A DNA stretch of 64,000 nucleotides, from the IMG/VR virus record IMGVR_UViG_3300020564_000003; one strand, given 5' to 3'. A program made the position numbers and the translations under genes. How positions within the stretch are numbered: the first letter of the stretch is position 1; every line of letters begins with the position of its first letter. The notes beneath the pieces are model-generated. The model searched no databases. It was not told the DNA's origin and saw only the letters and a list, made by a program, of their open reading frames with translations. Shown here in pieces: positions 14,456 to 34,957 of the stretch. Source of the DNA: an uncultured virus (IMG/VR IMGVR_UViG_3300020564_000003) (Duplodnaviria > Heunggongvirae > Uroviricota > Caudoviricetes).

Positions 14456-14576
14456 AAATAAATAACAATATAACGAGATTTTTTATCCTAAATGGTATGA
14501 AATTGTCTTGTTAAACCCCAACGTGATACGCCGCAAGGCATACGGACAACGACACAAGAAAAACAGGTGATTAATA

Positions 14577-15326: not shown

Positions 15327-15363
15327 TCCCCCACCAACCAACTACTGAAAGGACTTGACCTAA

Positions 15364-16494: not shown

Positions 16495-16512
16495 GACTCG
16501 CTTTACCGATGT

Positions 16513-16543
16513 CTGGGGACCCTACTCCTTCCTGGGTCCCCAG
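16513..16543 (+). terminator. Hairpin after capsid gene
   Basis: ctggggaccc-tactccttcct-gggtccccag, perfect 10-bp stem. Confidence 0.55.
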
Positions 16544-16581
16544 CCATCATTAATCACAAACTAACATAGGAGAAATACACC

Positions 16582-16953: not shown

Positions 16954-16967
16954 GCCGTCAAAAAGTA

Positions 16968-17022
16968 GTCCGACCCTCAACTGGTTCCCGCCCTCCTCCC
17001 AGTTGGGGGTTGGACCTTTTTT
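16968..17022 (+). terminator. Intrinsic terminator
   Basis: 17-bp stem (two G-U pairs), 14-nt C/U-rich loop, followed by TTTTTT. Confidence 0.75.
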
Positions 17023-17070
17023 ATTAGGTTATTTTTGAGATGATTGCTTCATACAGCTTTTGGAGGTTAC

Positions 17071-18132: not shown

Positions 18133-18449
18133 CCCAATACGTTCGCCCAGGAGATTCCGCAGGGACAAATCAAGACGTTATCCTAATTGCTGCCCCATCC
18201 CCAGGAAGTATCTCTGGAATAAATCCAGTAATAGTTGGGGGACCTACAGCTCAAACTCTCGCATATACTCATGTCCAGAGTATCTCGTCTAATATTTGGG
18301 TCATAAATCATAACTTAAACTTTCTCCCTAACGTGACAGTTGCCGATTCGTCTGGCGCTATCTGCGAAGGAGAGATTGAGTATACAAACAGTGATTCGTT
18401 AACTCTTACTTTTACTGGTGCATTTAGCGGAAAAGCGTACTTGTCCTAA
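18129..18449 (+). CDS. Small virion fibre-associated protein
   Basis: WVINHNLN.P.V.V...F....SGKAYL beta module, similar to C-terminus of next gene. Confidence 0.6.
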   Translation: MTQYVRPGDSAGTNQDVILIAAPSPGSISGINPVIVGGPTAQTLAYTHVQSISSNIWVINHNLNFLPNVTVADSSGAICEGEIEYTNSDSLTLTFTGAFSGKAYLS

Positions 18450-18462
18450 GGAGACACAAATA

Positions 18463-19827: not shown

Positions 19828-19832
19828 TATAA

Positions 19833-20117
19833 ATGAGTACAAAGGCATTAGTACCCTTAAACGTACTGGCTAAGAGCAGCGAGCCTGTTGGCCAACGTGC
19901 AGGTGACCTATACTTTGACACTACAACATTAAAGTTAAGAATATACGATGGCACACTTTGGATTGACATTGTCGGTACTGGTGGCTCTGGACAACTTAAC
20001 GTAGATGGTGGAAGACCAGCCTCTTTCTACGGTGGAACTCCAAATGTATTTGGTGGCTTCCCATCCTCTACATTTGAGGGGTCTTACACAGGGTCTTATG
20101 ACGGAGGAGTTTCGTAA
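19833..20117 (+). CDS. Small fibre-associated protein
   Basis: GDLYFDTT..LRIYDG..W and DGG motifs; coupled to next gene. Confidence 0.55.
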   Translation: MSTKALVPLNVLAKSSEPVGQRAGDLYFDTTTLKLRIYDGTLWIDIVGTGGSGQLNVDGGRPASFYGGTPNVFGGFPSSTFEGSYTGSYDGGVS

Positions 20118-22309
20118 TGGCAGTTGTTAATATTCTACTACGCAGAGGAACTGCGGCTGAGTGGACCGCATCAAACCCAATTCTTCTTGAAGGTGAAGTT
20201 GGCGTAGAAACTGACAGTAAAAAGCTTAAAGTTGGAGACGGGCTTACAGTTTGGGCTTCTCTACCTTACATCACACTAACTCCAGCAGCTGCATCTAGCC
20301 TCTACGCTACGATTGCTAACCCAACATTTACTGGAACAGTCTCCCTTGGAACTGGTGTTGGCATTCTGTTTGAAGGCGCAACTGCAAATGATTTTGAAAC
20401 TGCATTACAAGTAGTAGACCCTACAGCAGATAGAACACTGTCTCTGCCAGATGCAACAGGAACACTAGCTACACAGGAATATGTAACCACTGAAATAGGA
20501 ACACATAACTCAGACACAACCTCCGTTCATGGAATTGCGGATACATCAGCACTTGCCACAAAGACATATGCAGACACCGCTGTAAGCACCCATAGCTCAG
20601 ATACAACGTCTGTGCACGGTATTACGGATACAGCTGACCTTGCTACAAAGTCATACGCAGATACTGCAGCTGCTTCAGCAGTTTCTACATCAGTTTTTAA
20701 TCACTCATCAGACACTCTAGACGTTCACGGCATTGCAGACACAGCGGCACTTGCTACAAAAACGTATGCTGATACTGCAGTGTCTACGCACTCTTCAGAT
20801 ACGACTTCTGTTCATGGCATTACAGATACCGCCGAACTTGCTACAAAGACTTATGCAGATACTTCAGTTTCCACACACAGCTCAGATACAACCTCTATTC
20901 ACGGCATTGCAGACACTGCAGAGCTAGCTACAAAGACATATGCAGACACTGCTGTTTCAACACACTCTTCGGACACAACTTCTGTCCATGGTATTGCAGA
21001 TACCGCAAATCTTGCTACAAAGTCATACGCAGATGGTGCTGTGTCTACTCACGAAGCAGACACAACTTCTGTACATGGGATTGCAGACACTGCAGAGCTA
21101 GCTACAAAGACATATGCAGACACTGCTGTTTCAACACACTCTTCGGACACCACTTCTGTACATGGGATTGCAGATACCAGTCTGCTCGTAACAACAACTG
21201 GAACTCAAAACCTTACCAATAAAACGTTAACTACCCCAATTATTAATGGTCCAGAAATTACTGCTACTGGTGGAGTTCCACGTATTCACGGTATTTATCT
21301 TCCAGAGCCACACACCATTACGTTTGAAGGCTCAACAACAGATGAGTTTGAAACAGTGTTAACAGTTGCAAACCCAACAGCAGATAGAACTGTAACTATT
21401 CCAGATGCAACTACTACTCTCGTTGGAAGAGATACGACAGATACTCTTACAAATAAAACTTTAACTTCACCAGTAATTAATACTCCTACTGGAATTACTA
21501 AATCTGATGTTGGTCTGGCTAACGTTGATAATACAACAGATGCGAACAAGCCAATCTCAACTGCTACACAAGCAGCCCTTGACCTTAAGGCCCCAAAATC
21601 AACGCCAACATTTACTGGCACAGTTACAGCGTCAAACGACCTTGTTGTTGATGGAAACTTAACTGTAAACGGTACAACGTTTAACGCATCATCAACATCT
21701 ATCGTAATTGAAGATAACATTCTTCAGCTTGCTCATCAAAATGCAGCTAACGCAGTTGACCTTGGTCTTGTCGTTGGGTATAACGATGGCGCAACAAAGC
21801 ATGCAGGTCTTGTAAGAGACGTATCTGACGCTAAGTGGAAGTTGTTTCAAGGCGTAACTACAGAGCCTACAACAACTGTAAACTTTGGCCAAGGGTCACT
21901 AGATAACCTTGCAGTTGCAGCACTTGAGGCAACAACAGTAACCCCTTCATCTGGAGTAGTGTTTACAGACGGCACTCAGACAAAAGAAGGCGTCCCATCA
22001 CGCACACCAATTATTCAAAAGACGGCTTCTTATACGCTTTCAGCCTTGACTGAAAGAGACACTTTAATTGAGGTCGCTAGTTCAAGTGGTACAACAATTA
22101 CTATCCCATTGAACTCAACAGTAGCCTTTCCAGTAGGGACATCAATTGATATTCTTCAAACTTCTACAGGGCAAGTGACCATCGCTGGAGCTGTTGGAGT
22201 AACAGTTAACGCAACACCTGGCTTAAAACTTCGCACAACTTGGTCATCTGCAACTCTCTTCAAGAGAGCAGAAAATACCTGGGTTGTCTTTGGCGACTTG
22301 ACGGCTTAA
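20117..22309 (+). CDS. Tail/head fibre protein with Mtd-N (hyaluronidase-N-like) domain and His repeats
   Basis: LRRGTAAEWTASNPILLEGEVGVETD..KLKVGDG; eight ~29-aa repeats; TKSDVGLANVDNT fibre motif. Confidence 0.8.
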   Translation: MAVVNILLRRGTAAEWTASNPILLEGEVGVETDSKKLKVGDGLTVWASLPYITLTPAAASSLYATIANPTFTGTVSLGTGVGILFEGATANDFETALQVVDPTADRTLSLPDATGTLATQEYVTTEIGTHNSDTTSVHGIADTSALATKTYADTAVSTHSSDTTSVHGITDTADLATKSYADTAAASAVSTSVFNHSSDTLDVHGIADTAALATKTYADTAVSTHSSDTTSVHGITDTAELATKTYADTSVSTHSSDTTSIHGIADTAELATKTYADTAVSTHSSDTTSVHGIADTANLATKSYADGAVSTHEADTTSVHGIADTAELATKTYADTAVSTHSSDTTSVHGIADTSLLVTTTGTQNLTNKTLTTPIINGPEITATGGVPRIHGIYLPEPHTITFEGSTTDEFETVLTVANPTADRTVTIPDATTTLVGRDTTDTLTNKTLTSPVINTPTGITKSDVGLANVDNTTDANKPISTATQAALDLKAPKSTPTFTGTVTASNDLVVDGNLTVNGTTFNASSTSIVIEDNILQLAHQNAANAVDLGLVVGYNDGATKHAGLVRDVSDAKWKLFQGVTTEPTTTVNFGQGSLDNLAVAALEATTVTPSSGVVFTDGTQTKEGVPSRTPIIQKTASYTLSALTERDTLIEVASSSGTTITIPLNSTVAFPVGTSIDILQTSTGQVTIAGAVGVTVNATPGLKLRTTWSSATLFKRAENTWVVFGDLTA
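20468..21187 (+). repeat. Eight ~87-bp coding repeats (ATKTYADTAVSTHSSDTTSVHGIADTAEL)
   Basis: Visible in protein and DNA; third copy has an 8-aa insertion. Confidence 0.9.
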
Positions 22310-22330
22310 GAAAACACACAGGAGAGTTAA

Positions 22331-23413
22331 ATGGCATCGGGTAAAAGAATTGGAAAAAAGTCACAGGCTTCAAATGACTTTTTAGAGCCATTAGCTCCTA
22401 CAGGCGTATCTGCTTCAAATGTTGGAACAGGCAGAGCGTACAATAACGGCGCAGCGGTTGTTTCATTCTCTTTACCTGCACTTTCTCCAGCAGCAACTTC
22501 ATTTACAGTAACAGCAAGTTCAGGCCAGACAGCAAGCGGGTCATCATCTCCAATTACAGTTACTGGCATTCCTGTTAGTGCATCTGTAACATTTACAGTA
22601 ACAGCTACAAATGCTGCAGGAACTTCTCCCGCCTCTACTGCCTCGTCTGCAATCGCTATTACAACAAGGCCACAGGCACCACAGTCAGTTTCTGCAGCCA
22701 CAGTTTCTGCAAACCTTAATAGAATTAGCTGGACTGCTGGAGCCAATGGCGGTAGTGCAATTACCTCTTACACAATTACTGGCTCTGACGGCACAAGTTA
22801 CACTGGCATTTCTGGCTCAGCAGTGTCGTATGATGCTGCAGATAGCACGCCTTCTGGCCCAGCTCCAGGCTCACAGAGCTATACTATTGTTGCTATCACT
22901 TCGGTAGGAACTTCAGATGCAGCCTCTACAAGTTCTATTACGACTATTTCTCCATTCTTCCCATTCTTTCCTCCGTTCTTTCCTCCGTTCTTTCCATTCT
23001 TTCCATTCTTCCCTCCATTCTTCCCTCCATTCTTCCCATTCTTTCCTCCGTTCTTCCCACCATTCTTCCCATTCTTCCCATTCTTCCCTCCATTCTTCCC
23101 TCCATTCTTCCCATTCTTTCCTCCATTCTTCCCACCATTCTTCCCATTCTTCCCACCATTCTTCCCACCATTCTTCCCATTCTTCCCATTCTTCCCATTC
23201 TTCCCACCATTCTTCCCACCATTCTTCCCACCATTCTTCCCATTCTTCCCACCATTCTTCCCACCATTCTTCCCACCATTCTTCCCATTCTTCCCACCAT
23301 TCTTCCCACCATTCTTCCCACCATCCTTCCCATCATTTGGTGGCTGTGGGTCAGACTGTTTCTACTGTCTGTATGACTTCGGTGCAGGGTGCGGTTGTTC
23401 GTGCGCTTTCTAA
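22331..23413 (+). CDS. Fn3-domain protein with 129-aa Pro/Phe repeat and Cys-rich C-terminus
   Basis: GGAG RBS; two Fn3-like domains (YTITG, TFTVTATNAAG); (P)PFF repeats; GGCGSDCFYC...CGCSCAF. Confidence 0.85.
   Translation: MASGKRIGKKSQASNDFLEPLAPTGVSASNVGTGRAYNNGAAVVSFSLPALSPAATSFTVTASSGQTASGSSSPITVTGIPVSASVTFTVTATNAAGTSPASTASSAIAITTRPQAPQSVSAATVSANLNRISWTAGANGGSAITSYTITGSDGTSYTGISGSAVSYDAADSTPSGPAPGSQSYTIVAITSVGTSDAASTSSITTISPFFPFFPPFFPPFFPFFPFFPPFFPPFFPFFPPFFPPFFPFFPFFPPFFPPFFPFFPPFFPPFFPFFPPFFPPFFPFFPFFPFFPPFFPPFFPPFFPFFPPFFPPFFPPFFPFFPPFFPPFFPPSFPSFGGCGSDCFYCLYDFGAGCGCSCAF
22952..23338 (+). repeat. 9/12-bp tandem array CCATTCTTC / CCACCATTCTTC encoding 14 PFF + 20 PPFF + PPSF + PSF
   Basis: Counted from sequence; only three G in 387 nt on + strand; variation is synonymous in the P/F frame. 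Confidence 0.95.
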
Positions 23414-23454
23414 GATATGGTATATTTATTAAGTAACTACAAAAGGAGCACTTG

Positions 23455-23886
23455 ATGAACACATATGTATTTGCAACAAAAATATCTGAAGACTCGTACG
23501 AAGTCTTTAATATGCTGCATCTTGAGAGTCCTAATGCGGACCCTCTAATTCAGCGCATTGAGAATGCGCTAGATAGCGGTCTTCCAATAACAACAATGGT
23601 TACTACAGACATTGAAAATGTATACCCTGGGGCAGTTTGGGATGGTGAAGCTTTTGTGGGAGGAGAGAGGCCTGAAAGGTACAACGATACCCCTGACTGG
23701 GGAAAGTACTCTTTCCTAGTAGATAACACCATGTTCTTAACAACAGTATCCCCAAAAGGTGGTCACACAGATTTGATGAATGCCGCTGCTTTTGCACAAG
23801 AAGTTATTCTTCTTAGAGTACCAGAGGGCCAAACCGTTAATCGCGGTTCTATCTGGGACGGCACAACCTTTACGTCTCCAGAGTAA
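23455..23886 (+). CDS. Hypothetical protein with two internal repeats ending GxxWDGxxF (possible fibre chaperone)
   Basis: AGGAG RBS; GAVWDGEAF and GSIWDGTTF. Confidence 0.7.
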   Translation: MNTYVFATKISEDSYEVFNMLHLESPNADPLIQRIENALDSGLPITTMVTTDIENVYPGAVWDGEAFVGGERPERYNDTPDWGKYSFLVDNTMFLTTVSPKGGHTDLMNAAAFAQEVILLRVPEGQTVNRGSIWDGTTFTSPE

Positions 23887-23889
23887 CCT

Positions 23890-24135
23890 ATGTCTAAATG
23901 GAGTGAATGGAAAGAGGCTCTTGGAGACTCAAGGCCTTGGCACTTAATTGATTCTGGTAAAAAGCTTGATGACCAGGAGATTATTAAAAAAAGACTTGAT
24001 GAATGCATGTCTTGTGAAAACCTCATTAAAATTACAAAAAGCTGTAAACTATGCGGGTGCATTATGCCGTTAAAAACAACGCTTGCAGATGCAGAATGCC
24101 CTATTGGAAAATGGAAAAGACAGTCACTTAATTAG
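23890..24135 (+). CDS. Cys-rich DUF6171-like small protein, copy 1
   Basis: RxxxCxxC...CxxCGC...K......CPxxKW. Confidence 0.75.
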   Translation: MSKWSEWKEALGDSRPWHLIDSGKKLDDQEIIKKRLDECMSCENLIKITKSCKLCGCIMPLKTTLADAECPIGKWKRQSLN

Positions 24136-24153
24136 ATTATAGGAAGGCAAAAA

Positions 24154-24861
24154 ATGCACAATGAAAATGAAAATATCTGGTTTACAAAAGATAGGTCAGA
24201 GACTGCATCAAATAGAGTTCCTGAAAGAGCTCTAGACGATAAAGTAAGTGTTAAAAATTTAGGTTTGGGACTACACCTCTACCAAAACACTTTCTCACGT
24301 GAAGATGCCGCAAGATACATTAACACTCTTGAGTCCAATCTATCATCAGGCAACAAATATAAGTGGTCAGAGGCGCAAGTTACACAATCTGCTGTCCCAG
24401 TTAAGCGGGCAAGAGACTGTGTAGATTTTAAGTATAAGCAGGAGAACCTTGGGCCAAGAGATGAGTCAAACGCTGAACTTATAGACTTGCATGAGGAGAT
24501 ATACCAAAAGCTTAAGTACTGTATAGACGACTATGCTAGGTATTGGGGTATTAACGTCGTATATTACGAAGCTTTTAACTTTGTAAAGTATGAGGGGGCA
24601 GGGACTCACTTCAACATTCACGCAGACCACGGTCCTGCATACAACTGCACAGTATCTGCGGTTATTTATATTAATGATGATTATGAAGGTGGAGACCTTA
24701 AGTTCCCAAGACTTGATAACTTAGTTTATAAGCCAAAAGTAGGGGACATTGCAGTATTCCCATCAAACTATATTTATGAGCACGCTTCTCTGCCGATGGT
24801 TTCAGGTACAAAATATTGCGTTGTTGTGATGACAGACATTAACGAGTTAGGGCACAAGTAA
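24154..24861 (+). CDS. 2OG-Fe(II) oxygenase, prolyl-4-hydroxylase-like (1)
   Basis: HAD...YINDDYEGG...YEH...GTKY. Confidence 0.9.
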   Translation: MHNENENIWFTKDRSETASNRVPERALDDKVSVKNLGLGLHLYQNTFSREDAARYINTLESNLSSGNKYKWSEAQVTQSAVPVKRARDCVDFKYKQENLGPRDESNAELIDLHEEIYQKLKYCIDDYARYWGINVVYYEAFNFVKYEGAGTHFNIHADHGPAYNCTVSAVIYINDDYEGGDLKFPRLDNLVYKPKVGDIAVFPSNYIYEHASLPMVSGTKYCVVVMTDINELGHK

Positions 24862-25628
24862 TGGCTTTAGTAGCCATATTTAGGTCATTTAGGCCGTGGA
24901 TAGATAAAAAGCATATCTCTGTTCCAGTACCGACACAGACGCAAATGCCTGCCTGGTATAAAAATGCAGACAGATTTGCAAAAATGCCAAACGGAGAATA
25001 TTACAAAGCTCCAAAAGAAATTTGCCCATTTCCTAAAGAGGGTACAACAGATGATTATGGAAAAATTCCTACATGGAAAGCGTGCCCAGCTATTATGGAC
25101 GCCTTTACAACTGGGTACATCTTTAAAACACCGTGCGATTTAACTTTCTATAAAAATACTCAAGGAATCATAGATGTAAAAATCAATAACCCTAAGTACC
25201 AAGACTTCTGTACCCAAAGGCCCCCAATGCCACAGTTTGAGCATCCAAAAGGATACTATCAAACTCATTTTGCTTGGAGCTCTCCTTGGGGACTAGAACT
25301 TCCAGAGGGATACAGCGCACTGTTTATGACACCAATGAATAGGTTTGACTTACCGTTCCTAAACACTACTGGCGTTGTAGACTCAGACAAGCTTCACTTA
25401 CTTGGAACTTTTCCATTCTTTCTTCCAGAAGGTTGGGAAGGTACCATCCCAGAAGGAACTCCGTATATGCAGGTTCTCCCGTTTAAACGAGAAAACTGGG
25501 AACACAAAATAGACATTCCAGACCAATCTACAATGTATGATAAATTAGTAAAGAACATGCAATTTTACCGTCAGCCTGATGGCGGCGTATACCAAACCAA
25601 AGTTTGGTCAAAACGAGACTACAAATAG
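24861..25628 (+). CDS. DUF6065-related protein
   Basis: KACPAIMDAFTTGY, PWGLELPEGYSAL, GVVDSD, GTPYMQVLPFKR; C-terminal pattern shared with 26294 gene. Confidence 0.55.
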   Translation: MALVAIFRSFRPWIDKKHISVPVPTQTQMPAWYKNADRFAKMPNGEYYKAPKEICPFPKEGTTDDYGKIPTWKACPAIMDAFTTGYIFKTPCDLTFYKNTQGIIDVKINNPKYQDFCTQRPPMPQFEHPKGYYQTHFAWSSPWGLELPEGYSALFMTPMNRFDLPFLNTTGVVDSDKLHLLGTFPFFLPEGWEGTIPEGTPYMQVLPFKRENWEHKIDIPDQSTMYDKLVKNMQFYRQPDGGVYQTKVWSKRDYK

Positions 25629-25637
25629 GAGAATGCA

Positions 25638-26294
25638 ATGCAAACATGGACAGAAAAAGTTGATTTAGGTAGTGGCATCTTTTGCTATAAGGGCGTCATC
25701 AATAAAGACATTGATGTTATAGGTAGAATTGAAGCAAACCTTAAGCCAGAAGGAGATATGACTGGGTATGCTTGGCAACCAGCGTACGTTGGGTATAGGC
25801 AGCTTATGCCAGAGTACAGAGACTGCAACGACTTTAAATTTAAGAAGACTGATATAGAAAATGACAAGAGTCAGGTCAGCTTAAATCTTCAAGCTTTGTG
25901 GCAAGATTTGTATGACGTTAAGTTACCTGCGGTTGAAGACTACTGCAGAATGTACAACATTAACAATTTAAAGTATTGGGAAGCATTCAACTTCATTAAG
26001 TATGGTCCAGGACAACACTTTATGGAGCACCATGACCATGGATTTTCTTACAACTGTACAGTTTCTTTAGTTGGGTATCCAAACGATGATTACGAAGGTG
26101 GCGAGCTTTACTTTAGGTTACAGAACTTAAAGGTTAAAGCAGATGCTGGGGACCTGTTTATTTTTCCATCAAATTTTATGTACCCACATCAAGCAATGCC
26201 AGTGACTTCTGGCGTCAAATACTCTATTGTGACAATGCTTGACTACAGCAAAAAGTTTCATACTCCAGAGATGTATAGCGCAGAATCAGATTAA
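25638..26294 (+). CDS. 2OG-Fe(II) oxygenase, prolyl-4-hydroxylase-like (2)
   Basis: HHD...YPNDDYEGG...YPH...GVKY; close paralog of copy 1 (RDCxDFK, EAFNFxKY, YNCTVS). Confidence 0.9.
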   Translation: MQTWTEKVDLGSGIFCYKGVINKDIDVIGRIEANLKPEGDMTGYAWQPAYVGYRQLMPEYRDCNDFKFKKTDIENDKSQVSLNLQALWQDLYDVKLPAVEDYCRMYNINNLKYWEAFNFIKYGPGQHFMEHHDHGFSYNCTVSLVGYPNDDYEGGELYFRLQNLKVKADAGDLFIFPSNFMYPHQAMPVTSGVKYSIVTMLDYSKKFHTPEMYSAESD

Positions 26295-27010
26295 TGTTCA
26301 ACATCTCAGTTGAAAAAACACACGGGGCTCTCTTTGATGTCCAACCTATGCCCATTAAAAGAGACTGGATGGATGCAACGTCAGAGAATCACGCTTACAG
26401 GTGTTTTCCAGTAACCCAGTCAAATGTAATTGGCTGGAGTTTATCGTGCTTACAGGACATTGAGTTTATTTGGGATGGAATAAACGACCAAACACCAGAC
26501 CGTGTCCAAGTGTTTAGTCCAGAAGGGGCTTACTCTGGTAGAGGTCAATCCTCTATAAGCTTAAACACGGGACTGGTTTTTAGGACAGATGAAGATGTCA
26601 GTATCTTTACTATTAACCCAGTAAATTATTTTAGTGATGAGTTTGAAACTATGTCGTCCCTAATCAGCACATCTTTTTACGACAACCCTTTGCCTTTAGC
26701 TATCAAGGCAAAGATTGCAAATAAAAGGGTAGTTATTAAGGCTGGAACCCCAGTTGCCACAATTATCCCAATATCTTTGTCAAAGTTAAATGGAACAAAC
26801 ATTGAGGTTGTTGAGTACCAAGACCCAGGTAGCAAACGATTAAATGCAAACATTTCTTACGGAGAGGCTGCACAAAAAGTAAACTCTTCTGGAAAATGGA
26901 CAGATTGGTACAGAGACGCTGTAAACGAAAGAGAAGAAAGCCTAGGCTCTCATGAAGTAAAGACCCTAAAATTAGGGGTAATAGATAAAACGAAAAGGGA
27001 TACACTATGA
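26294..27010 (+). CDS. DUF6065-like protein
   Basis: RDWMDAT...HAYRCFP....N..GW; GTPVATIIP. Confidence 0.65.
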   Translation: MFNISVEKTHGALFDVQPMPIKRDWMDATSENHAYRCFPVTQSNVIGWSLSCLQDIEFIWDGINDQTPDRVQVFSPEGAYSGRGQSSISLNTGLVFRTDEDVSIFTINPVNYFSDEFETMSSLISTSFYDNPLPLAIKAKIANKRVVIKAGTPVATIIPISLSKLNGTNIEVVEYQDPGSKRLNANISYGEAAQKVNSSGKWTDWYRDAVNEREESLGSHEVKTLKLGVIDKTKRDTL

Positions 27011-27693
27011 GCATGGAACAAAACAAAGATTCGTATACCGTAGTAAAAAGAACCCCATCTATAACTCCATCAGGCTGGTTTGGGGATAGCAAAGACATGA
27101 TTGTTGAGCTAGAAAACTTCATGACCCAAGAAGAGATAGAGTTCTTAGAAAAAGCTGCTAAGTCTTTAACAATTTGGGATGTTACGGAAAGCCATACAAA
27201 TGAGAATGGGACCGTTACCTACGACTCAGATTATTGGAAAGACCGAGTCGCAACTCAGCCAACTTTAGATAAAAATGACCCAAAGATATCTCCAGTAATT
27301 GCTGGGCTATTTCAAAGACTACGACCAATTATTGAAGAGTTCTACCAGGTAGAAGTTATACCAACTGGGACAACTATTGTTAAATGGCTTCCTGGGCAGT
27401 TTCAAAAACCACACGCTGATAAAGAGCTCCACGAGGGCCCCGACGCTGGAACACCTAACGACTTTCCAAACTATGACCTATCAAGTTTGTTTTATTTAAA
27501 TGATGACTATGAGGGCGGAGAGCTGTATTTCCCACTACAGGGTGTGCAGTTTAAGCCTAAAAAAGGCGCTGCTTACTTCTTCCCAGGTGACAAAAACTAC
27601 ATCCATGGGGTTACTGAGGTAAAAAGCGGCTTACGTTTTACATGCCCTTTCTTTTGGGAAATAACAAAGCATACAGGACCTAGACAACCATAA
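27007..27693 (+). CDS. 2OG-Fe(II) oxygenase, prolyl-4-hydroxylase-like (3)
   Basis: HAD...YLNDDYEGG...YIHGV...GLRF. Confidence 0.9.
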   Translation: MSMEQNKDSYTVVKRTPSITPSGWFGDSKDMIVELENFMTQEEIEFLEKAAKSLTIWDVTESHTNENGTVTYDSDYWKDRVATQPTLDKNDPKISPVIAGLFQRLRPIIEEFYQVEVIPTGTTIVKWLPGQFQKPHADKELHEGPDAGTPNDFPNYDLSSLFYLNDDYEGGELYFPLQGVQFKPKKGAAYFFPGDKNYIHGVTEVKSGLRFTCPFFWEITKHTGPRQP

Positions 27694-27701
27694 CGACGAG
27701 G

Positions 27702-27714
27702 TACAATCAACCCT
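27702..27714 (+). promoter_or_regulatory. Internal -10 element for probable leaderless transcript
   Basis: TACAAT 7 nt upstream of ATG 27715. Confidence 0.45.
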
Positions 27715-28488
27715 ATGAAATCAATTTACGACATCCCTCTTAACTCAGCTGAGGGCTCTCCTGACTTCTTAAGTCAATTTAAAGGCAAAGTAACCTTGTT
27801 GACGAATACAACCGTCGGCTGCGGCAACGCTAATCAAATGGAAGTTCTCCAATGGCTTCAAGATAAGTACGGTGGAGATGATTTCCAAGTTATTGCAATT
27901 CCTACTAATGACTATTGTGGCCCAGGAGTAACTAAGGGCAAGTGGTCTGAAGGCATTACCTGTGGCTTAGATTCACAAGAGTATGGTCAAGAAGTCTACG
28001 GAACCACGTTTAAGTTCTCAGAGATGGTGTCGTCAAACCCAAATGAGAGTGCTACTGAGCTTAGCCCTTACAAGGGCGATAACTCTGTAAACGGACTAGG
28101 TCAACCAAGAAAAGAAACTCATGAGCTATACAAAGAAATAGCTGAGCAAATGCTTGCGTTTGCTGAAAAACAAAGAGAACTTGGCATTCCAGACAGAGAT
28201 GGCTATTTGTCACCTTGGTTAAATCAACCTTTTGGCAACGGCGCAATGCAGGGCGGTAACTTTGAGAAGTACCTTATTGATAGAGATGGGTATGTAGCTA
28301 ACTGGTTTCAATGCACAGTACTAAATTACGATATTGAAAAGACACTAAAAGAAGCCCTAATAGCTGCGGGAAACCCTGCGGGTATGGGAGAAGGCAGAAC
28401 CCCAGAAGTATTTGAAGAAGAGTATGCCCTTGTTCAACAAGAGATAGAAAAGTTAATTGCTGGAGATAAATCCCTATTAAATAACTAA
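27715..28488 (+). CDS. Divergent glutathione peroxidase-like (thioredoxin-fold) protein
   Basis: SIYDI....G....LSQFKGKV.L..N....CG, Q...LQ..Y....F.VIAIP.N, NFEKYLIDRDG. Confidence 0.8.
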   Translation: MKSIYDIPLNSAEGSPDFLSQFKGKVTLLTNTTVGCGNANQMEVLQWLQDKYGGDDFQVIAIPTNDYCGPGVTKGKWSEGITCGLDSQEYGQEVYGTTFKFSEMVSSNPNESATELSPYKGDNSVNGLGQPRKETHELYKEIAEQMLAFAEKQRELGIPDRDGYLSPWLNQPFGNGAMQGGNFEKYLIDRDGYVANWFQCTVLNYDIEKTLKEALIAAGNPAGMGEGRTPEVFEEEYALVQQEIEKLIAGDKSLLNN

Positions 28489-28504
28489 ACGGAGTAAAAG
28501 TACA

Positions 28505-29260
28505 ATGAACCTAGCAAACAAAAAACGACTAACAAAAGACATCGTTGTTTATGAGAACTTCATAAGCAAAGAAGATTGCAAAAAGATGATTCAAGCCCTA
28601 GATGCTCAGGCAGAGAATGGGGCAATTTCTTGGATGCCAATTTCATTTTACGAGTCCTATTCCTCAGTTTTGCCACAAGACAACGACCAAGAGGTTATTG
28701 ACGCTGGTCTATCTCCAACTATATTTTCAGATATTGAAAAGGCAATGCCTGAAGCAATTGCTTCAGTCCACGACCTTGACCCAAAAACAATCTGTAAAAT
28801 TGGGTACCACACACAGAAGTGGGAGCCAGGAGCATATGCAAGAATTCACTCTGACAACACAGATGCTGAGGGAAACTCAGGTGCGTTTACAAGAAGCCGC
28901 TACGCAGGGTTTCTATACTTAAACGATGATTTTGAAGGTGGGCTTTTACGGTTCCCAGCACAAAACTTAGAGATTAAACCAGAAGTTGGGCTGCTTGCTG
29001 TATTTGACGGCGGGTTTAACAATATGCACGAAGTATCTCTTATTACAGGTGGTGTCAGATACACCATTGGTTCTTTCTGGGATGACCGAGAAGAGTCAGC
29101 GTACCCACAAGAGGTGCGAGATGCATGGGCTGAAGAGATGAAGGCTACTAGAGCGCAACAAGAGATTGAACGAGCAGAGTGGCAAGAGCTTCTTAAGCAA
29201 GGCTGGAAGTTAGACGCAGCAGGAAATAAGTACAAACTAGAAGATGTTGCAAATGATTGA
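28505..29260 (+). CDS. 2OG-Fe(II) oxygenase, prolyl-4-hydroxylase-like (4)
   Basis: HSD...YLNDDFEGG...MHEV...GVRY. Confidence 0.9.
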   Translation: MNLANKKRLTKDIVVYENFISKEDCKKMIQALDAQAENGAISWMPISFYESYSSVLPQDNDQEVIDAGLSPTIFSDIEKAMPEAIASVHDLDPKTICKIGYHTQKWEPGAYARIHSDNTDAEGNSGAFTRSRYAGFLYLNDDFEGGLLRFPAQNLEIKPEVGLLAVFDGGFNNMHEVSLITGGVRYTIGSFWDDREESAYPQEVRDAWAEEMKATRAQQEIERAEWQELLKQGWKLDAAGNKYKLEDVAND

Positions 29261-29912
29261 GTCTTTTAAACAACAGTTGATAGACAGCGGATACGTAGTT
29301 ACAGATATTACCCCAGAGCTATTCTCTGTTGAGAACTTTTTATCCCAAGACCAAATAAACACTTTTTGGGAGATTATCCACAGTACGTCACAAGAAGACT
29401 GGGAAGTAGAGTACCACGCAAACTTAAAGTATTTTTGTTTGGAAAAATTTGGTAGAGATGATGTAGATAATCTGGTTGCTGAAGGTAAGTTTGAGATTAC
29501 CCAAAATTGGAAAGATAAAAACTTTAACATACTACATCATGAAATCCAAAGGCCTTTATACGATGTTGTAAACTCTATGGTGGTCAAAGCTGACCCAGAA
29601 TTAATTTTAAGTGGATTTGCAACAATTCAACGAATGCAAGCAGGGGTAGAGTTAAAAGCGCACACTGACCAAAAAACAGACCCATCTATAAAGTATGCCA
29701 CCATCGTATACATCAATGACGACTACGTAGATGGTGAGTTATTTTTTCCAAACCTTGATATCCAGTTAAAACCTAAGCCAGGAACTATGTTATTTTTTCC
29801 AGGAAACGAAGAGTATGAGCACGGAGTCAAGCATGTAGGAGATGGACCAATACGATATGTTCTTGTTGGGTTCATTAAAGAAAAAGACCATTACGCAAAA
29901 AATAAGTACTAA
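29253..29912 (+). CDS. 2OG-Fe(II) oxygenase, prolyl-4-hydroxylase-like (5)
   Basis: HTD...YINDDYVDG...YEHGV...PIRY; start 29244 or 29253. Confidence 0.88.
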   Translation: MIESFKQQLIDSGYVVTDITPELFSVENFLSQDQINTFWEIIHSTSQEDWEVEYHANLKYFCLEKFGRDDVDNLVAEGKFEITQNWKDKNFNILHHEIQRPLYDVVNSMVVKADPELILSGFATIQRMQAGVELKAHTDQKTDPSIKYATIVYINDDYVDGELFFPNLDIQLKPKPGTMLFFPGNEEYEHGVKHVGDGPIRYVLVGFIKEKDHYAKNKY

Positions 29913-29923
29913 GGGAGAAACAG

Positions 29924-30679
29924 ATGAACAGAGAAATACTGGACCCAAAAGCGTACTACTATACAGATGCTATTGAGGACTTTGATACCTTTAAAAAGGT
30001 TTGGAAAGAGTTAGACACTCTTGAGCAATACACAGACTTAGGCGTAAACGTTTGGGACACCTGGACCGCTTCTAATGATAAAAACTTTATTTATGGAGAA
30101 ACAAAAACATTTGATATTAATGCAATTAATAGGCTTAGCGTCATTTACGATTCAGATAGCGGAAAAGTAGCGGAAAAAAGTAAGTATATATACGACGCGG
30201 TTATGACTGCAATGTATAACGTTTGCAAAGACTATGCTTCTTCTTTAGGGGACTTTGATGAGCCAAGACTTTTTCCAACGTTTAATATAAAAAAGTACAA
30301 TACTGGAATGGGCATGGGCGCACATTTTGACCAGCTAGATGGCGATAAGACCTTAAGATATTCATTAGTAATGTACTTAAACGACGACTGTGAAGGCGGC
30401 GAAATCTCTTTTCAGTTAAAAGATTATGATGGAGGATGGACTAGCGCTGATGGTTTTTCTAAGGGGTCAGCTCCAGCCGTAGACTTGGACTACGACGTAT
30501 CTGTTGCAAATAAAGCAATTGATTTTGGACTAAAGCCAAAAGAAAATAGCGTTGTCATATTCCCAGCCTTTCCCCCATACTTTCATACCGCACACGTTGT
30601 AAAGTCTGGTTTTAAATACATGATTCCTGGTCACTGGATTCATAACAATATGGAGCTTAATAAGAACCAGGGTATGTAA
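29924..30679 (+). CDS. 2OG-Fe(II) oxygenase, prolyl-4-hydroxylase-like (6)
   Basis: HFD...YLNDDCEGG...YFH...GFKY. Confidence 0.88.
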   Translation: MNREILDPKAYYYTDAIEDFDTFKKVWKELDTLEQYTDLGVNVWDTWTASNDKNFIYGETKTFDINAINRLSVIYDSDSGKVAEKSKYIYDAVMTAMYNVCKDYASSLGDFDEPRLFPTFNIKKYNTGMGMGAHFDQLDGDKTLRYSLVMYLNDDCEGGEISFQLKDYDGGWTSADGFSKGSAPAVDLDYDVSVANKAIDFGLKPKENSVVIFPAFPPYFHTAHVVKSGFKYMIPGHWIHNNMELNKNQGM

Positions 30680-31345
30680 TTGAAAACAGCAATTGTTACT
30701 GGAGCAAGTAAGGGCGTAGGCCTAGCAACAGTCAAGCGTCTATCTGAAAATGGGTACAAGGTTATTGCTGTTTCAAGAAACCTGTCTAAAGTATCTGAGC
30801 TTGTATCTGACAACGTTGAAGTATACAGCCTAGATGTAACAGACTCTAAAGCAATAGAGGGCTTCTTTGAAAAGTATAAGGATATTACTTTAGACCTTCT
30901 AGTTAATAATGCTGGTGGTGGTTCTAGCCCAACTAACATTATTAATGAGACTATGGATAACTTTAGACGAGCCTACGATATAAACGTATCTGGGCCTATG
31001 TACCTTTCTCAATTATTTGTGCCGTGTATGGAAAAGTCAGATTCCCCAACAATTGTATTTATCACCTCTTTTGGAGGTAAGGTGCCGTATCGCGGTGGAG
31101 GAAATTACACAAATGCCAAGAGGGGTGAACGCGGTTTAATTGACACAATGAGACTTGAGTTCCCACAATTTGGCATTAAAATTACAGAAATTTGTCCAGC
31201 AACTATTGATACCCAAGAGCAAAAACGAGACCAAGCCTTAACTGCAGAGGATTTAGCAGAAGCTATTTACTGGGTAGGGTCGCTACCAAGTCACGTTAAT
31301 ATAAATGAGATTGAAATTTGCCATATTAACAGTAGTAAGTACTAG
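30680..31345 (+). CDS. Short-chain dehydrogenase/reductase (YdfG-like)
   Basis: TGASKGVG, LVNNAG, YxxxK (YTNAK), LTAEDLAEAIYWV..LP.HVNI. Confidence 0.92.
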   Translation: MKTAIVTGASKGVGLATVKRLSENGYKVIAVSRNLSKVSELVSDNVEVYSLDVTDSKAIEGFFEKYKDITLDLLVNNAGGGSSPTNIINETMDNFRRAYDINVSGPMYLSQLFVPCMEKSDSPTIVFITSFGGKVPYRGGGNYTNAKRGERGLIDTMRLEFPQFGIKITEICPATIDTQEQKRDQALTAEDLAEAIYWVGSLPSHVNINEIEICHINSSKY

Positions 31346-31351
31346 CCTTGT

Positions 31352-32002
31352 ATGCCTAAAGATGTTCCTAAGATAATTTGGCAAACACATAACTACCTAT
31401 ATGAAGATTTGCCAGAACATTTAAAGCAAGTAACCCAGACTTGGATAAATTTAAATCCAACCTGGGAGTATAGGTACGTTAATCATGTGGATAGGGCAGA
31501 ATTCGTAAAGACAGAAGACCCCGTGCTCTATACTCACTATGAAAAATTAGCTCCTATAACTCAAGGTGATATATGGAGATACCTAGTAACCTATAAATAT
31601 GGTGGGGCGTATGCAGATATGGATTCGGTATGTACAGTTCCTCTAGACTACATGCTTGAAACCTTGCAGTGTGAGCATGACCTTTTAGCAACTAGCCAAT
31701 CAGGTATGCCCCCGCTTGACTATAATAATTGTAATTATGTTGTTGGAAAAAACTCAAAAAATCTTGAAATAATTATAAAAAGTATGAAAGATGAATACTA
31801 TTTAACTGATAAGTTAAACAAGTGGGCTTGCCCCTTAACGCGTTTTTGTGTACAAGCTTCCATAAGTGATACTGCCTGTAAAGACTTTTACGGTGCCCTT
31901 CATTCAGAGGGGTTTAAGTCAGCTTTTGACGATACTTTTGAGGTAAACTATTACGGGAAGCATATAGCCTACAAGCAATTAATCCGTGACTTGCCCCGCT
32001 AA
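31352..32002 (+). CDS. Glycosyltransferase family 32 (OCH1-like, DxD)
   Basis: VPKIIWQT, W..LNP.WEY, DIWRY...YKYGGAYADMD. Confidence 0.85.
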   Translation: MPKDVPKIIWQTHNYLYEDLPEHLKQVTQTWINLNPTWEYRYVNHVDRAEFVKTEDPVLYTHYEKLAPITQGDIWRYLVTYKYGGAYADMDSVCTVPLDYMLETLQCEHDLLATSQSGMPPLDYNNCNYVVGKNSKNLEIIIKSMKDEYYLTDKLNKWACPLTRFCVQASISDTACKDFYGALHSEGFKSAFDDTFEVNYYGKHIAYKQLIRDLPR

Positions 32003-32080: not shown

Positions 32081-34957
32081 ATGTCAATTGTTGGAGTAAC
32101 GGCTTCTAGCCGTAGGCAAGTACCTAACGCTCCAACAATTGGCACAGCTACAGATGTAGGAACAGATAGAGCGTTCAATAATGGCGCAGCAGTAGTTACC
32201 TTTACCCCAAGTCCAATTGGCTTTGAAGCAACCTCTTACACAGTAACCTCTAGCCCTGGAGGATTCACAGCCTCTGGTACCTCTTCTCCTTTAACTGTAA
32301 CTGGGTTGCAATCTAATACCGCTTATACTTTTACAGCAACAGCAACAAACTTTGTAGGAACAGGTCTTGCCTCTGCTGCATCAGATAGTATTACTGCAAC
32401 TACCGTTCCACAGGCTCCAACTATCGGAACTCCCACTCTTGCTAGTGGTCAGCCATACACTGGTTCTGCAAACATTGGGGTTGTCTTTACCGCTGGCGCA
32501 ACTGGTGGAAAATCAATCACAACTTTTACAGCAACCTCTTCTAGCACTACAGTTGTTTCTGGAGCAACTTCTCCAATTACTATATCTGAAACTGTGGGTA
32601 TCTCTAGAAACTACACAGTTACCGCAACTAACGATAATGGAACAAGCTTAGCTTCTTCTGCAAGTACCTTCATTACTCCGTCTTCTATTCCTGAATCTGC
32701 TCCTACTATCGGAACTCTTTCAAATGTTACTGGTATTGCTTTTGGTTCTAACCCACAGTTTACTTTGACCTTTACAGCACCAACAAGCACAGGTGGCTCA
32801 GCAATAACCTCGTACAAGTACTCAACAGATGGTGGAACTACTTACATAACAGCGCCAAGCAATACAAGCCCAATGACTTTAACTACGCAAAGCACCTCTG
32901 GAACTCCAGCATTTGTAGCGGGAACTTCTTACTCTGTAATCCTTAAAGCAGTAAATGCAAATGGAGATTCTCCAGCATCTGCATCAAGTAACTCACGGGT
33001 TGCTGCAACTATCCCAAGCACTCCTACATTTACCCTGTCTAGTACTGGCAACACCAACATTACTGGAACGTACTCCTATAGCACTGGTGGACAAGCTGTT
33101 ACTTCATATGTTTCAGAAGTCTCTGGAATCTCACCAACTACCGCAGGGACAAGTCCTGTAGGAAACACGTCAGGCGCTTTAACTTACACAGCTAGTTATG
33201 TGCAGGGAACTCAATACACTGTGTCCTTTAGCGTTACTAACCCTATGGGCACTGCAACTGCTTCCTCTCAATCTATTACGCCGTTTGCACCAGCAACTCC
33301 TGGTACTCCAGCAAGTTTAAGCGCTGCTGTTGCAACCACTACATCTGTAAACCTAACGTACGGAGCCATTGTACAAAACGGGTCCGCACTTACTGCGTGG
33401 CAAGGAAGTGGGACAAGTACTGGAGATATTGTCTCTAGCCCTGCGATTGCTTTGACTTACTCTGGAACACCTAGCGCTGCAGGTGGCGTTGTAAGCGTTT
33501 CAGGAACATTTGCGGCAACTCAGTCATACACATTTACTCTAAAAGCAAGAAACGGAGCTGGTGTAGGAGGAGGAATAACCTCAAACAGTGTTCTTCCACT
33601 GCCTTCTATTACAGACAACTTTAACCGTTCTGGTTCTACTTTAGGAACAACCTCTTCTGGTAGTCCTTGGACCTCTCACTCTGGTTCCTGGTCTACCAAC
33701 GGAAGTCGTGGCGTTTCATCTTCGTCTGGTGTTGCCTCTGTATCGTTTGGTAATGGAACTGCAACGGTAACAGCCGATGTAAGTAACGGTTACGGAGTTG
33801 CGTGGTGGGTAACGGGTAGCGGGTCTTACTATAGTTCGTATTACCAACAGTACACCTACACGTATTCAACAGGTAACAACTACTGTACTGACTGTAGTTA
33901 TAGAAACTATTATTGTACTGGAACGACATTTTATTCTTGCCCAGGTGGTCAAAACCAATTTAACGGGCAGTGTTACACCTGTAGTTCTGGAACTTTTTCC
34001 TTTCCTAATTGCCTTAGTTGTGCTCAAGGTTCAGCCGTTTGTCCTTCTGGAACTACAGAGTACAACGGAAGCTGTTACAGCTGTAGTAGTGGAACTCTCT
34101 ACAACAATACTCAGTGTCAGGTTTATGCTGGAACTACTGGTAATGGTATTTACTCATACGTTGGCGGTGCTACTACTTACAGCGCAACTCCATCTGCACG
34201 AAGCTGTACATCAATAGATGTTCAAAGCTATTCCAACCCATGTTTTTACATTGGAGAATGCCTTCCTGAAGGAAGCGGCTCTATTTGTTTAAGAGATTGT
34301 TTACAAGGTGGCTATCAGCTTACGCCAACTTCCAGCACATGCTACTTGTGCGGTAGCGGTACTGTGAATGGACCAAACCCAACAACTGGTTCTGGGTCCT
34401 ACGCTTCTTGCTACGCCGAAGGCACAATGCCTGTTTATTCCTACACAAACGCAACTGTAAGCTCTAAGGTAACCCCAGCCTCTGGCACATACCCAAACTG
34501 TAATTACGGAACTACTGCAATTAGTGCTACATATCAAGGTCAAGCGACTGCAACCTCTAGCACAAACAACGGAACATACCCAAACTGTACTTATGGTTCG
34601 GCATCCTACGATTCAACTGGTGCGGCTGTAAACTCTTACCCAACATGCGGTTGCCTTGGAAATACCTCCGACAGAACTACTCTTGGAGGAGGACAACCAG
34701 TTACACCAACAGCTACCGCTACTGGTGACAGAATTATTACTGGTGGAACAACAGGTGGGCTACTTGGGTCTACCCCTACAAAGATTACAGCGGTAGTAAG
34801 TGCGGCTGGTTCTTGGACAGTATATGCTTACAACTCAAGCGGTACTCAGATTTACACCACAACAGGTACAGGTACTCCTGTTGGAAATTACGGTGTATTT
34901 TTAGGCACTAGCACACTAGCCCTTGGAGCAGGGGTAGACAACTTCTCGGTATCATAA
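32081..34957 (+). CDS. Multi-Fn3 virion appendage protein with C-terminal beta-sandwich interrupted by a Cys-rich insertion
   Basis: About five Fn3-like units; N-terminal unit paralogous to 22331 protein; TDNFNRS...VDNFSVS flanking 24 Cys. Confidence 0.8.
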   Translation: MSIVGVTASSRRQVPNAPTIGTATDVGTDRAFNNGAAVVTFTPSPIGFEATSYTVTSSPGGFTASGTSSPLTVTGLQSNTAYTFTATATNFVGTGLASAASDSITATTVPQAPTIGTPTLASGQPYTGSANIGVVFTAGATGGKSITTFTATSSSTTVVSGATSPITISETVGISRNYTVTATNDNGTSLASSASTFITPSSIPESAPTIGTLSNVTGIAFGSNPQFTLTFTAPTSTGGSAITSYKYSTDGGTTYITAPSNTSPMTLTTQSTSGTPAFVAGTSYSVILKAVNANGDSPASASSNSRVAATIPSTPTFTLSSTGNTNITGTYSYSTGGQAVTSYVSEVSGISPTTAGTSPVGNTSGALTYTASYVQGTQYTVSFSVTNPMGTATASSQSITPFAPATPGTPASLSAAVATTTSVNLTYGAIVQNGSALTAWQGSGTSTGDIVSSPAIALTYSGTPSAAGGVVSVSGTFAATQSYTFTLKARNGAGVGGGITSNSVLPLPSITDNFNRSGSTLGTTSSGSPWTSHSGSWSTNGSRGVSSSSGVASVSFGNGTATVTADVSNGYGVAWWVTGSGSYYSSYYQQYTYTYSTGNNYCTDCSYRNYYCTGTTFYSCPGGQNQFNGQCYTCSSGTFSFPNCLSCAQGSAVCPSGTTEYNGSCYSCSSGTLYNNTQCQVYAGTTGNGIYSYVGGATTYSATPSARSCTSIDVQSYSNPCFYIGECLPEGSGSICLRDCLQGGYQLTPTSSTCYLCGSGTVNGPNPTTGSGSYASCYAEGTMPVYSYTNATVSSKVTPASGTYPNCNYGTTAISATYQGQATATSSTNNGTYPNCTYGSASYDSTGAAVNSYPTCGCLGNTSDRTTLGGGQPVTPTATATGDRIITGGTTGGLLGSTPTKITAVVSAAGSWTVYAYNSSGTQIYTTTGTGTPVGNYGVFLGTSTLALGAGVDNFSVS

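Follow-up and report, generated by a model that had tools for sequence, protein, structure and literature searches.

Collagen-like segments occur in phage tail fibres, and collagens with a C-terminal cystine knot are known. The chlorovirus PBCV-1 possesses a collagen-type prolyl hydroxylase together with Pro-rich repeat proteins (Eriksson et al., 1999, as cited in PMC7019647), and in the cyanophage Syn9 ten dioxygenases form an array (Iyer, Abhiman, de Souza and Aravind, 2010; PMC2938197). The use which phages make of prolyl-hydroxylase-like genes has been called 'cryptic' (PMC9301287). In materials chemistry the synthetic tripeptides Pro-Phe-Phe and hydroxyproline-Phe-Phe form crystals in which helical-like arrays are built via a dry aromatic zipper, and hydroxyproline in place of Pro alters hydrogen bonding and mechanics (PMC8113556). 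We report on a gene within a stretch of 64,000 nucleotides from an uncultured virus of the Caudoviricetes (IMG/VR record IMGVR_UViG_3300020564_000003; the whole stretch is called the window). The gene at 22331..23413 (plus strand) codes for a protein with a tract of 129 residues made almost only of Pro and Phe, and is situated between a fibre gene and an array of 2-oxoglutarate-Fe(II) oxygenases. With moderate confidence we consider the tract an extended stalk of a fibre accessory protein. That it is also modified by the neighbouring oxygenases is a more tentative proposal.

The window shares with the Syn9 array several tandem classical 2-oxoglutarate-Fe(II) dioxygenases in a phage and an accompanying protein of the dUTPase fold with a conserved Cys, for which the candidate counterpart here is DUF6065 (PMC2938197). 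Specifically, six PF13640 genes and the first of two DUF6065-type proteins (DUF6065a) were found in the window. The Syn9 array has in addition tryptophan halogenases and a JmjC-type member (PMC2938197), whereas no such Pfam family is present here in the open reading frames (ORFs) of 23452-36070. Host lineage differs as well, the capsid protein of the window being 59-62% identical to that of Streptomyces myophages of 112-116 kb. Further, the array in the window comes directly after a Pro-rich structural protein, a candidate substrate. With PBCV-1 the window has the collagen-type hydroxylase and the Pro-rich repeats in common, yet six paralogues in the window stand against one prolyl 4-hydroxylase there, and PBCV-1 has a eukaryotic host, unlike the window phage. 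The Pro-rich repeats of PBCV-1 differ in their chemistry and are not known to contain Phe. The profile of oxygenase c from the window matches the PDB entry 5c5t (E = 2.8e-6), which we take to be the PBCV-1 prolyl 4-hydroxylase.

Collagen-like fibre segments resemble the tract as repetitive, Pro-rich stalks of variable length, here with hydroxylase genes nearby, and the cystine knot of collagen has a parallel in the short Cys-rich tail, by which chains might be locked together. However, half of the tract residues are Phe and none of the 129 is Gly, i.e. the Gly-X-Y pattern is absent. This excludes a collagen triple helix. Extensin-type Ser-Pro(3-5) motifs are absent from the tract also, as Pro runs do not exceed two and Ser occurs in PPSF and PSF only. 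An architecture as in FG-nucleoporins, FG with hydrophilic spacers, is not present in the window protein; the tract has no spacers, and FG dipeptides are found only at or after its end (..PSF-GG.., ..DFGAG..). The PFF unit is common to the tract and the synthetic tripeptides; the latter are free in crystals, lack PPFF and have no biological context, whereas the tract is a covalent polymer of 129 residues (PMC8113556). It can be regarded as a natural polymer of Pro-Phe-Phe, a rigid self-assembling motif of materials chemistry (PMC8113556). The protein is composed of the following parts:

22331..23413, plus strand: whole gene, putative fibre-accessory protein of 360 amino acids (ORF list; homologue searches)
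22331..22387, plus strand: conserved N-terminal segment, residues 1-19, motif ..GK..G.KSQASNDFLEP.. (alignment; AlphaFold2)
22388..22951, plus strand: two fibronectin type III (FN3)-like beta-sandwich domains, residues ~20-207 (Pfam, AlphaFold2, homologue profile)
22952..23338, plus strand: Pro/Phe tract, residues 208-336 (translation, Tandem Repeats Finder, codons)
23339..23410, plus strand: Cys-rich tail at the C-terminus, GGCGSDCFYCLYDFGAGCGCSCAF, with 7 Cys among its 24 residues (translation); the stop codon follows at 23411-23413

Translation of the tract yields 70 Phe, 57 Pro and 2 Ser, arranged as 14 PFF, 20 PPFF, one PPSF and one PSF, with PPSF-PSF at the C-terminal end. This agrees in length, units, end and coordinates with what the original prediction had read from the letters alone. 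With 1 for one Pro and 2 for two, the order of units is 112211221221122122122111222122212221. Tandem Repeats Finder reported arrays with periods of 12, 21 and 33 nucleotides (scores 247-383). Across 54 further ORFs tallied in the window, Pro accounts for 4.8% and Phe for 3.6% of the residues, thus the composition of the tract is far beyond chance. Two long overlapping ORFs, 22917-23432 (plus strand) and 22944-23462 (minus strand), encode HSS.. and GRM.. repeats; these are shadows of the repeat, not genes. A helical periodicity of 3.6 residues was considered, the mean unit having 3.58 residues here, and was dropped because relatives with units of 4 or 5 residues only deviate from it.

The repeat was examined at the level of reads. 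Logan contigs from four lake runs of separate studies were aligned to the window. In runs X1, X3 and X5 long flanking contigs end at 22974-22979 and restart at 23295-23296; in run X6 a shorter piece ends at 22979 and the downstream contig restarts at 23377. None of the contigs from the four runs crosses the tract, within which only short pieces align (45-104 nucleotides among the pieces listed). A related locus (L066) is 100% identical over residues 211-360, its contig beginning within the tract, and contig ends within the tract were seen in 6 of 75 family ORFs from related loci. The existence of the tract and both of its junctions are thereby independently confirmed. The number of units (14 plus 20) depends on the window's own assembly because no independent contig spans them. 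As the units comprise 9 or 12 nucleotides, a collapsed or expanded assembly would leave the reading frame intact.

Several properties of the sequence argue that the tract is translated. The tail pattern CGxxCxxCxYDFGAGCGCxCA[FY] is present with all Cys in four related loci (L008, L047, L050 and L051). Their tracts have about 73-94 residues compared with 129 in the window, and in their N-terminal parts up to about one third of the compared codons differ from the window. A conserved tail after tracts of other lengths indicates that the reading frame was held through length changes. In the window tract the major codons are TTC for Phe (63 of 70) and CCA for Pro (46 of 57). Of the 20 non-major codons 18 are synonymous, compared with about 21% if single changes were random; a nominal p of 7e-11 exaggerates this, since copies of a unit are not independent. 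In the 54 ORFs tallied elsewhere in the window, only 29% of the Phe codons are TTC. The same reversal is family-wide: TTC reaches 85% in 79 tracts (n = 3091) and 19% in the remaining genes of these loci (n = 8167); the corresponding values are 77% and 34% for TAC, and 26% and 4% for CCG. Among 69 distinct tracts TTC is at 90% in Pro-rich and at 41% in Pro-poor ones, and only 15 of 1171 FF pairs are written TTT-TTT. Possibly, selection favours smooth and accurate decoding of FF doublets and disfavours U/T runs which invite slippage. The 3' half of the window tract consists purely of CCA and TTC, and variant codons are confined to the 5' part, a layout as expected for a recent expansion of units toward the 3' end. 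Taken together, in-frame conserved tails, codon reversal and synonymous-only variation point to a tract that is translated and under selection.

In the N-terminal segment G8, F17 and P20 are invariant and K5 is nearly so in the homologue alignment, and AlphaFold2, run with 49 aligned sequences for the 360-residue protein, predicts a helix at residues 9-17. We infer that this segment is the docking end. All-beta segments extend across residues 24-190 and form two confident beta-sandwich domains; means over blocks of 10 residues are mostly above 90 between residues 21 and 200, apart from drops to 86 and 61. Pfam fn3 (PF00041) is found at residues 116-163 (E = 1.4e-5, 25.6 bits, cutoff 25), and homologues score up to 53.9 bits. 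A homologue profile matches FN3 structures of titin and fibronectin with E down to 7.6e-62 (summed). From the predicted strands and the profile matches we count the seven-stranded FN3 sandwich as present. The C-terminal tail is modelled with low confidence.

A search of 5.8 billion clustered proteins, with 8000 candidates scored, yielded at least 842 homologues at E<=1e-3. The protein is thus one of a large family from lake phages. Names given to relatives in the sources are few and generic ('Fibronectin type III', 'titin', 'trimeric autotransporter adhesin'). Tracts and tails were tallied in 120 listed homologues. Of these, 118 have a low-complexity tract that is aromatic and uncharged and spans 23-132 residues (median 80); it is Pro-rich in 109 and Pro-poor, of a Phe/Gly type, in 9. 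Hence the Pro/aromatic repeat, for which the original prediction had asked for a comparison among homologues, is conserved. Pro-rich units are PFF, PPFF, PPYF, PPHF, VPPYF and PPMF/PPRF; examples of Pro-poor units are TPFSF and TPFGF. Viral contigs yielded 364 confirmed relatives, and 80 loci were retained. There the tract reaches 192 residues and further Pro-poor units appear (FSVFGF, FGAFGAFG, FSPFGVFG, APPGFF), i.e. Pro-poor relatives bear FG-type units. Because relatives exchange Pro/Phe units for Phe/Gly units, Phe and not Pro is the universally kept feature of the tract.

What follows the tract is exchangeable. In the listed homologues 64 tails are long, 20 Cys-rich and 34 short and Cys-poor. 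A profile from 35 long-tailed members matches the bacterial intein-like domain 2lwy (E = 6.1e-8) and inteins, which identifies the long tails as Hint domains. Pfam scores on these tails are mostly below threshold, with PT-HINT at 29.9 (cutoff 27.7) in one member; the tails start at a Cys preceded by basic residues. A domain of this bacterial intein-like/Hint type, with about 155-170 residues, thus forms the end of 64 among the 120 listed homologues, whereas in the window protein a Hint domain (~130-170 residues, Cys/Ser start) is absent and a Cys-rich tail of 24 residues takes its place. The window protein is a member of the Cys-tail class. Another locus (L068) has two Pro/Phe genes in tandem, 8217-9182 and 9995-10972, with differing Cys-containing tails.

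In the phage record collection 20000-26000 gave no megablast match, and tblastn with the Pro/Phe protein gave none with the low-complexity filter on. The Protein Atlas returned only generic viral FN3 clusters for the protein. Broader literature searches found no description of a Pro/Phe fibre-protein family among the papers listed, and the main text of a paper on freshwater actinophages does not mention fibronectin, oxygenase, hydroxylase, proline or intein (PMC6802176).

The explanation which we favour is an extended Pro/Phe stalk on a fibre accessory protein, and we hold it to be rather probable. It draws on the sequence, the family, the domain build, the selection on the tract and the synteny, and on the family of the adjacent enzymes. 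The protein would be part of the virion and would dock on the fibre apparatus by its conserved N-terminus. The FN3 pair and the stalk would then project a small, exchangeable C-terminal cap, here a putative 7-Cys knot, in relatives a Hint self-processing domain or a short basic tail. As a non-globular, uncharged and aromatic chain the stalk would measure about 40 nm, if extended in a polyproline-II-like manner. Its dense aromatic surface may supply stiffness, adhesion or both, and a sticky or rigid spacer with a tip may aid contact of the fibre with the host envelope. The tract may lengthen or shorten through slippage of units, the 3' half having probably been homogenised afresh. The original prediction had proposed a rod or a hydrophobic adhesive. 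The position behind the fibre gene and the modular build agree with this; the role as such is predicted. The modular caps, i.e. Cys knot, self-cleaving Hint domain or short tail, suggest a swappable tip of a phage fibre.

The gene order around the Pro/Phe gene is stable. Fibre gene, Pro/Phe gene, (144-residue gene, DUF6171) and an alternation of oxygenase and DUF6065 genes follow each other in nearly all related loci with enough flank, the fibre gene always preceding the Pro/Phe gene. In phages with the module before the portal gene the order is retained in reduced form. The neighbouring genes in the window are:

20117..22309, plus strand: fibre gene, 730 residues, Mtd_N start, about nine 29-residue repeats, ends ..VVFGDLTA (Pfam Mtd_N 3.4e-15; PHROG tail-fibre/minor-tail)
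23452..23886, plus strand: 144-residue protein, a conserved neighbour directly behind the Pro/Phe gene in many loci (without match to a Pfam or PHROG family)
23890..24135, plus strand: 81-residue Cys-containing DUF6171-like protein (Pfam DUF6171, E = 5.6e-5, below cutoff)
24154..24861, plus strand: 2-oxoglutarate-Fe(II) oxygenase a, PF13640 (Pfam; best solved relatives prolyl 4-hydroxylase and lysyl hydroxylase LH3)
24861..25628, plus strand: DUF6065-like protein a (phrog_7084, 2.2e-34; AlphaFold2, mean confidence 90.5)
25638..26294, plus strand: 2-oxoglutarate-Fe(II) oxygenase b, PF13640 (Pfam; solved-structure matches)
26294..27010, plus strand: DUF6065 protein b (Pfam DUF6065, 8.9e-26)
27007..27693, plus strand: 2-oxoglutarate-Fe(II) oxygenase c, PF13640 (Pfam; orthologue alignment; profile)
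27715..28488, plus strand: glutathione-peroxidase-like (thioredoxin-fold) protein (Pfam GSHPx, 1.9e-8)
28505..29260, plus strand: 2-oxoglutarate-Fe(II) oxygenase d, PF13640 (Pfam; orthologue alignment; profile)
29244..29912, plus strand: 2-oxoglutarate-Fe(II) oxygenase e, PF13640 (Pfam)
29924..30679, plus strand: 2-oxoglutarate-Fe(II) oxygenase f, PF13640 (Pfam)
30680..31345, plus strand: short-chain dehydrogenase/reductase, FabG-like (Pfam adh_short, 3.2e-40; phrog_3142)
31352..32002, plus strand: glycosyltransferase with DXD sugar-binding region (Pfam Gly_transf_sug, 2.8e-13)
32081..34957, plus strand: 958-residue protein with FN3 array, closes the block (Pfam fn3)
34968-35228: second DUF6171 copy (30.9 bits, cutoff 27)

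The repeat unit of the fibre protein, of about 29 residues, is ..THSSDTTSVHGIADTAELATKTYADTAVS... For the 144-residue protein the nearest named Protein Atlas clusters are tail-fibre assembly proteins, at sub-threshold values of 0.76-0.79. The FN3 array of the 958-residue protein is a paralogue of that in the Pro/Phe protein (50% identity over residues 13-141, E = 2e-16). Both FN3-array proteins closely precede a small Cys protein of the DUF6171 type, and in other loci the second of these two types comes directly after the Pro/Phe gene; this small protein may be an assembly factor. The glutathione-peroxidase-like gene occurs in a part of the related loci only. A connection between it and the Cys tail was considered and dropped, as many Cys-tailed loci are without that gene. 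A scan of 14000-33500 for promoters and terminators gave numbers at the level of shuffled sequence (33 versus 33.6 promoter-like and 15 versus 16.3 terminator-like sites).

All six oxygenases belong to PF13640. As single sequences, four of them gave weak matches to prolyl 4-hydroxylase, LH3 and prolyl 3-hydroxylase (E from 1e-4 to 1e-2). Profiles of orthologues were more telling: that of oxygenase d matches prolyl 3-hydroxylase 1 at 6.5e-11 and prolyl 4-hydroxylases at 5e-6, that of oxygenase c the same enzymes at 1.1e-8 and at 1.6e-6 to 2.8e-6, respectively. In oxygenase d H115, D117, H175 and R185 are invariant in 17 orthologues; in oxygenase c H136, D138 and H200 are invariant and R210 nearly so in 18. 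By their order in the motif we take these residues to be the HxD...H iron triad and the basic residue that binds 2-oxoglutarate. Profile matches and the conservation of HxD...H and Arg thus make the oxygenases relatives of collagen-type peptidyl hydroxylases. By family membership they are prolyl-hydroxylase-like enzymes, with a predicted activity of this kind.

Is the tract their substrate? The concordance between tract type and oxygenases was evaluated in the 47 loci that have 7 kb or more of downstream sequence. Each of the 37 Pro-rich tracts (31-43% Pro) precedes 5-10 oxygenase genes, and each of the 10 Pro-poor tracts (3-21% Pro) none or one. In a tree of the N-terminal region tract type and oxygenase trait change four times, always jointly; a Pro-rich locus with the oxygenase cassette (L079) is nested in a Pro-poor clade. 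A candidate chemistry would be hydroxylation of the tract prolines by the six oxygenases and subsequent decoration by the glycosyltransferase. Hydroxylation and glycosylation would turn a very insoluble polymer into a soluble and stiff one. The original prediction had pointed to adjacent tailoring enzymes. Of this, the adjacency stands, since prolyl-hydroxylase-like genes adjoin the Pro/Phe gene and travel with Pro-rich tracts; a link to the tract itself is unproven, and we propose the hydroxylation tentatively, at somewhat less than even chances, on grounds of sequence and gene order. The wider claim, that such tracts are the natural substrate of phage tandem dioxygenase arrays and that six hydroxylases, possibly followed by the glycosyltransferase, produce a stiff and soluble hydroxyproline/aromatic rod, we hold with no more confidence. 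In a further locus (L078:4632-5835), whose tract is Pro-poor (FSPTPPF.VFG), the oxygenase block is replaced by an Asp/Asn beta-hydroxylase-type gene and a sulfotransferase-like gene, in keeping with a more general presence of protein-modifying enzymes beside these tails.

A number of observations weigh against a modified, extended stalk. Only two of the four trait changes are forced by well-supported branches, therefore 2-4 independent contrasts are left and the sign test gives p = 0.5; moreover, adjacent genes are expected to be exchanged jointly whatever their function. The Pro-poor Phe/Gly relatives show that Pro is dispensable for the role of the tract. AlphaFold2 models the tract without regular secondary structure at low confidence (predicted local distance difference test, pLDDT, 53-60). 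In PBCV-1 virions hydroxyproline was not detected (PMC7019647), and Iyer et al. (2010) read the Syn9 array as synthesis of secondary metabolites (PMC2938197). The DUF6065 proteins, finally, are predicted to have a dUTPase-like fold with an invariant Cys (C75 in DUF6065a). When the AlphaFold2 model of DUF6065a (pLDDT 90.5) was compared exhaustively with 48,161 chains, the top 12 matches were all dUTPases (Z 6.7-9.1, the top nine 8.1-9.1; root-mean-square deviation ~3 Å over 107-127 residues). Down to Z 5.2 all matches belong to the dUTPase superfamily or its viral derivatives save 1tul (Z 5.4), and the next unrelated structure is at Z 3.9. Foldseek against the PDB gave nothing at E<=1e-3, its weak top rows being dUTPases, and a sequence search against the PDB gave no match. 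By eye, the stretch GVVDSDK resembles what we take to be dUTPase motif 3. DUF6065 relatives are present in 49 haloarchaeal virus records, in one of them adjoining thymidylate synthase and DNA polymerase, and in Pro-poor loci they adjoin a class II ribonucleotide reductase. Fold and nucleotide-metabolism neighbours suggest that some genes of the block may act in the chemistry of nucleotides or small molecules.

An assembly artefact or an untranslated repeat would agree with the lack of an independent contig across the tract and with the breaks of several related contigs within it. However, both edges recur in four runs from separate studies of lakes, tracts in frame with conserved downstream domains are present in more than 100 homologues drawn from numerous assemblies, and the family-wide codon reversal together with synonymous-only variation constitutes a signature of translation. 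This explanation, which the original prediction had named as its own refutation, is hardly conceivable. Another of its suggestions was a multi-core ribosomal peptide precursor that is cut to linear or cyclic PFF/PPFF peptides in the style of antamanide or the orbitides. PPFF is known from cyclic peptides, the literature found for the motif strings (PPFFPPFF, PFFPFF, PFFPPFF, FFPPFF, PPYFPPFF) concerns mostly Amanita cyclic peptides and had nothing on phages, and a thioester at the C-terminus is conceivable for the relatives with a Hint end. Yet the units abut over all 129 residues without spacers for recognition or cleavage. A conserved N-terminus and a pair of folded FN3 domains precede the tract and a conserved tail follows it, the tract length varies from 23 to 192 residues, and the gene belongs to a structural module behind the fibre gene. 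Pfam scans of 13 + 5 + 48 window ORFs found no protease, macrocyclase or transporter family. A precursor is thus very improbable, and this part of the original prediction is not supported.

More serious is an unmodified, cohesive aromatic tail, sticky by virtue of densely packed Phe for which selection acts, beside an oxygenase block that is unrelated and adjacent only via a variable island between structural genes. Such a block might serve secondary-metabolite or nucleotide chemistry or the modification of host proteins. The relatives with FSVFGF, FGAFGAFG and FSPFGVFG units and 3-21% Pro agree with an unmodified tail, as do the structureless tract in the AlphaFold2 model, the dUTPase-like fold predicted for DUF6065 with its nucleotide-metabolism contexts elsewhere, and the secondary-metabolite proposal for the Syn9 array (Iyer et al., 2010; PMC2938197). 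Also, cyanophages have similar PF13640 genes (113 phage records matched), and no phage record matched the Pro/Phe protein. On the other hand, tract type and oxygenase number agree in all 47 loci, the solved structures closest to the oxygenases are without exception peptidyl-prolyl or peptidyl-lysyl hydroxylases, a glycosyltransferase ends the block, and at least one PF13640 gene remains nearby in most of the rearranged Pro-poor loci. All in all we regard the unmodified tail with an unrelated block as possible, though unlikely, and prefer the extended stalk of a fibre accessory protein.

Many prolyl-hydroxylase-like genes occur in lake and ocean phages, and the Pro/Phe family offers a concrete and easily testable candidate substrate: a large, codon-optimised Pro polymer directly beside an oxygenase array. 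If it is the substrate, it would represent a glycine-free fibre material unrelated to collagen, a natural counterpart of the synthetic hydroxyproline-Phe-Phe assemblies, and would answer the question about the role of dioxygenase arrays which has been open since at least 2010. The present analysis contributes a check of the repeat against reads, the reversal of codon use throughout the family, the predicted dUTPase-like fold of DUF6065 with the nucleotide-metabolism genes found beside it, and the number of independent contrasts behind the link between tract and oxygenases.

The window belongs to a contractile-tailed phage with terminase, portal, major capsid, sheath, tube, tape measure and baseplate proteins. 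Its G+C content is 43%, and no tRNA genes were found in it. In the Streptomyces myophages of the phage collection the Pro/Phe protein was unmatched, and the corresponding place in one of them is without such an annotation. The window stretch is contained in 24 runs, all from lakes or freshwater save one wastewater run with a small share. Among 185,579 species genomes, 5 stretches contain a DNA pattern for PPFFPFFPPFF; each is a contig of a lake metagenome-assembled genome (L082-L086), and these genomes are assigned to five different bacterial groups. Four of these contigs bear the same phage module; the fifth, of 1.8 kb, has the Pro/Phe gene and a DUF6171-like gene only. Most likely this is phage DNA placed in the wrong bins, which gives no indication of the host. 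Possible hints of a Gram-positive host within the window are a lysin with CHAP and peptidoglycan-binding parts, an 846-residue PA14-domain protein and a weak PASTA match (55-579, 3276-5816, 8264-8968). The host is probably to be sought among the abundant freshwater Actinobacteria.

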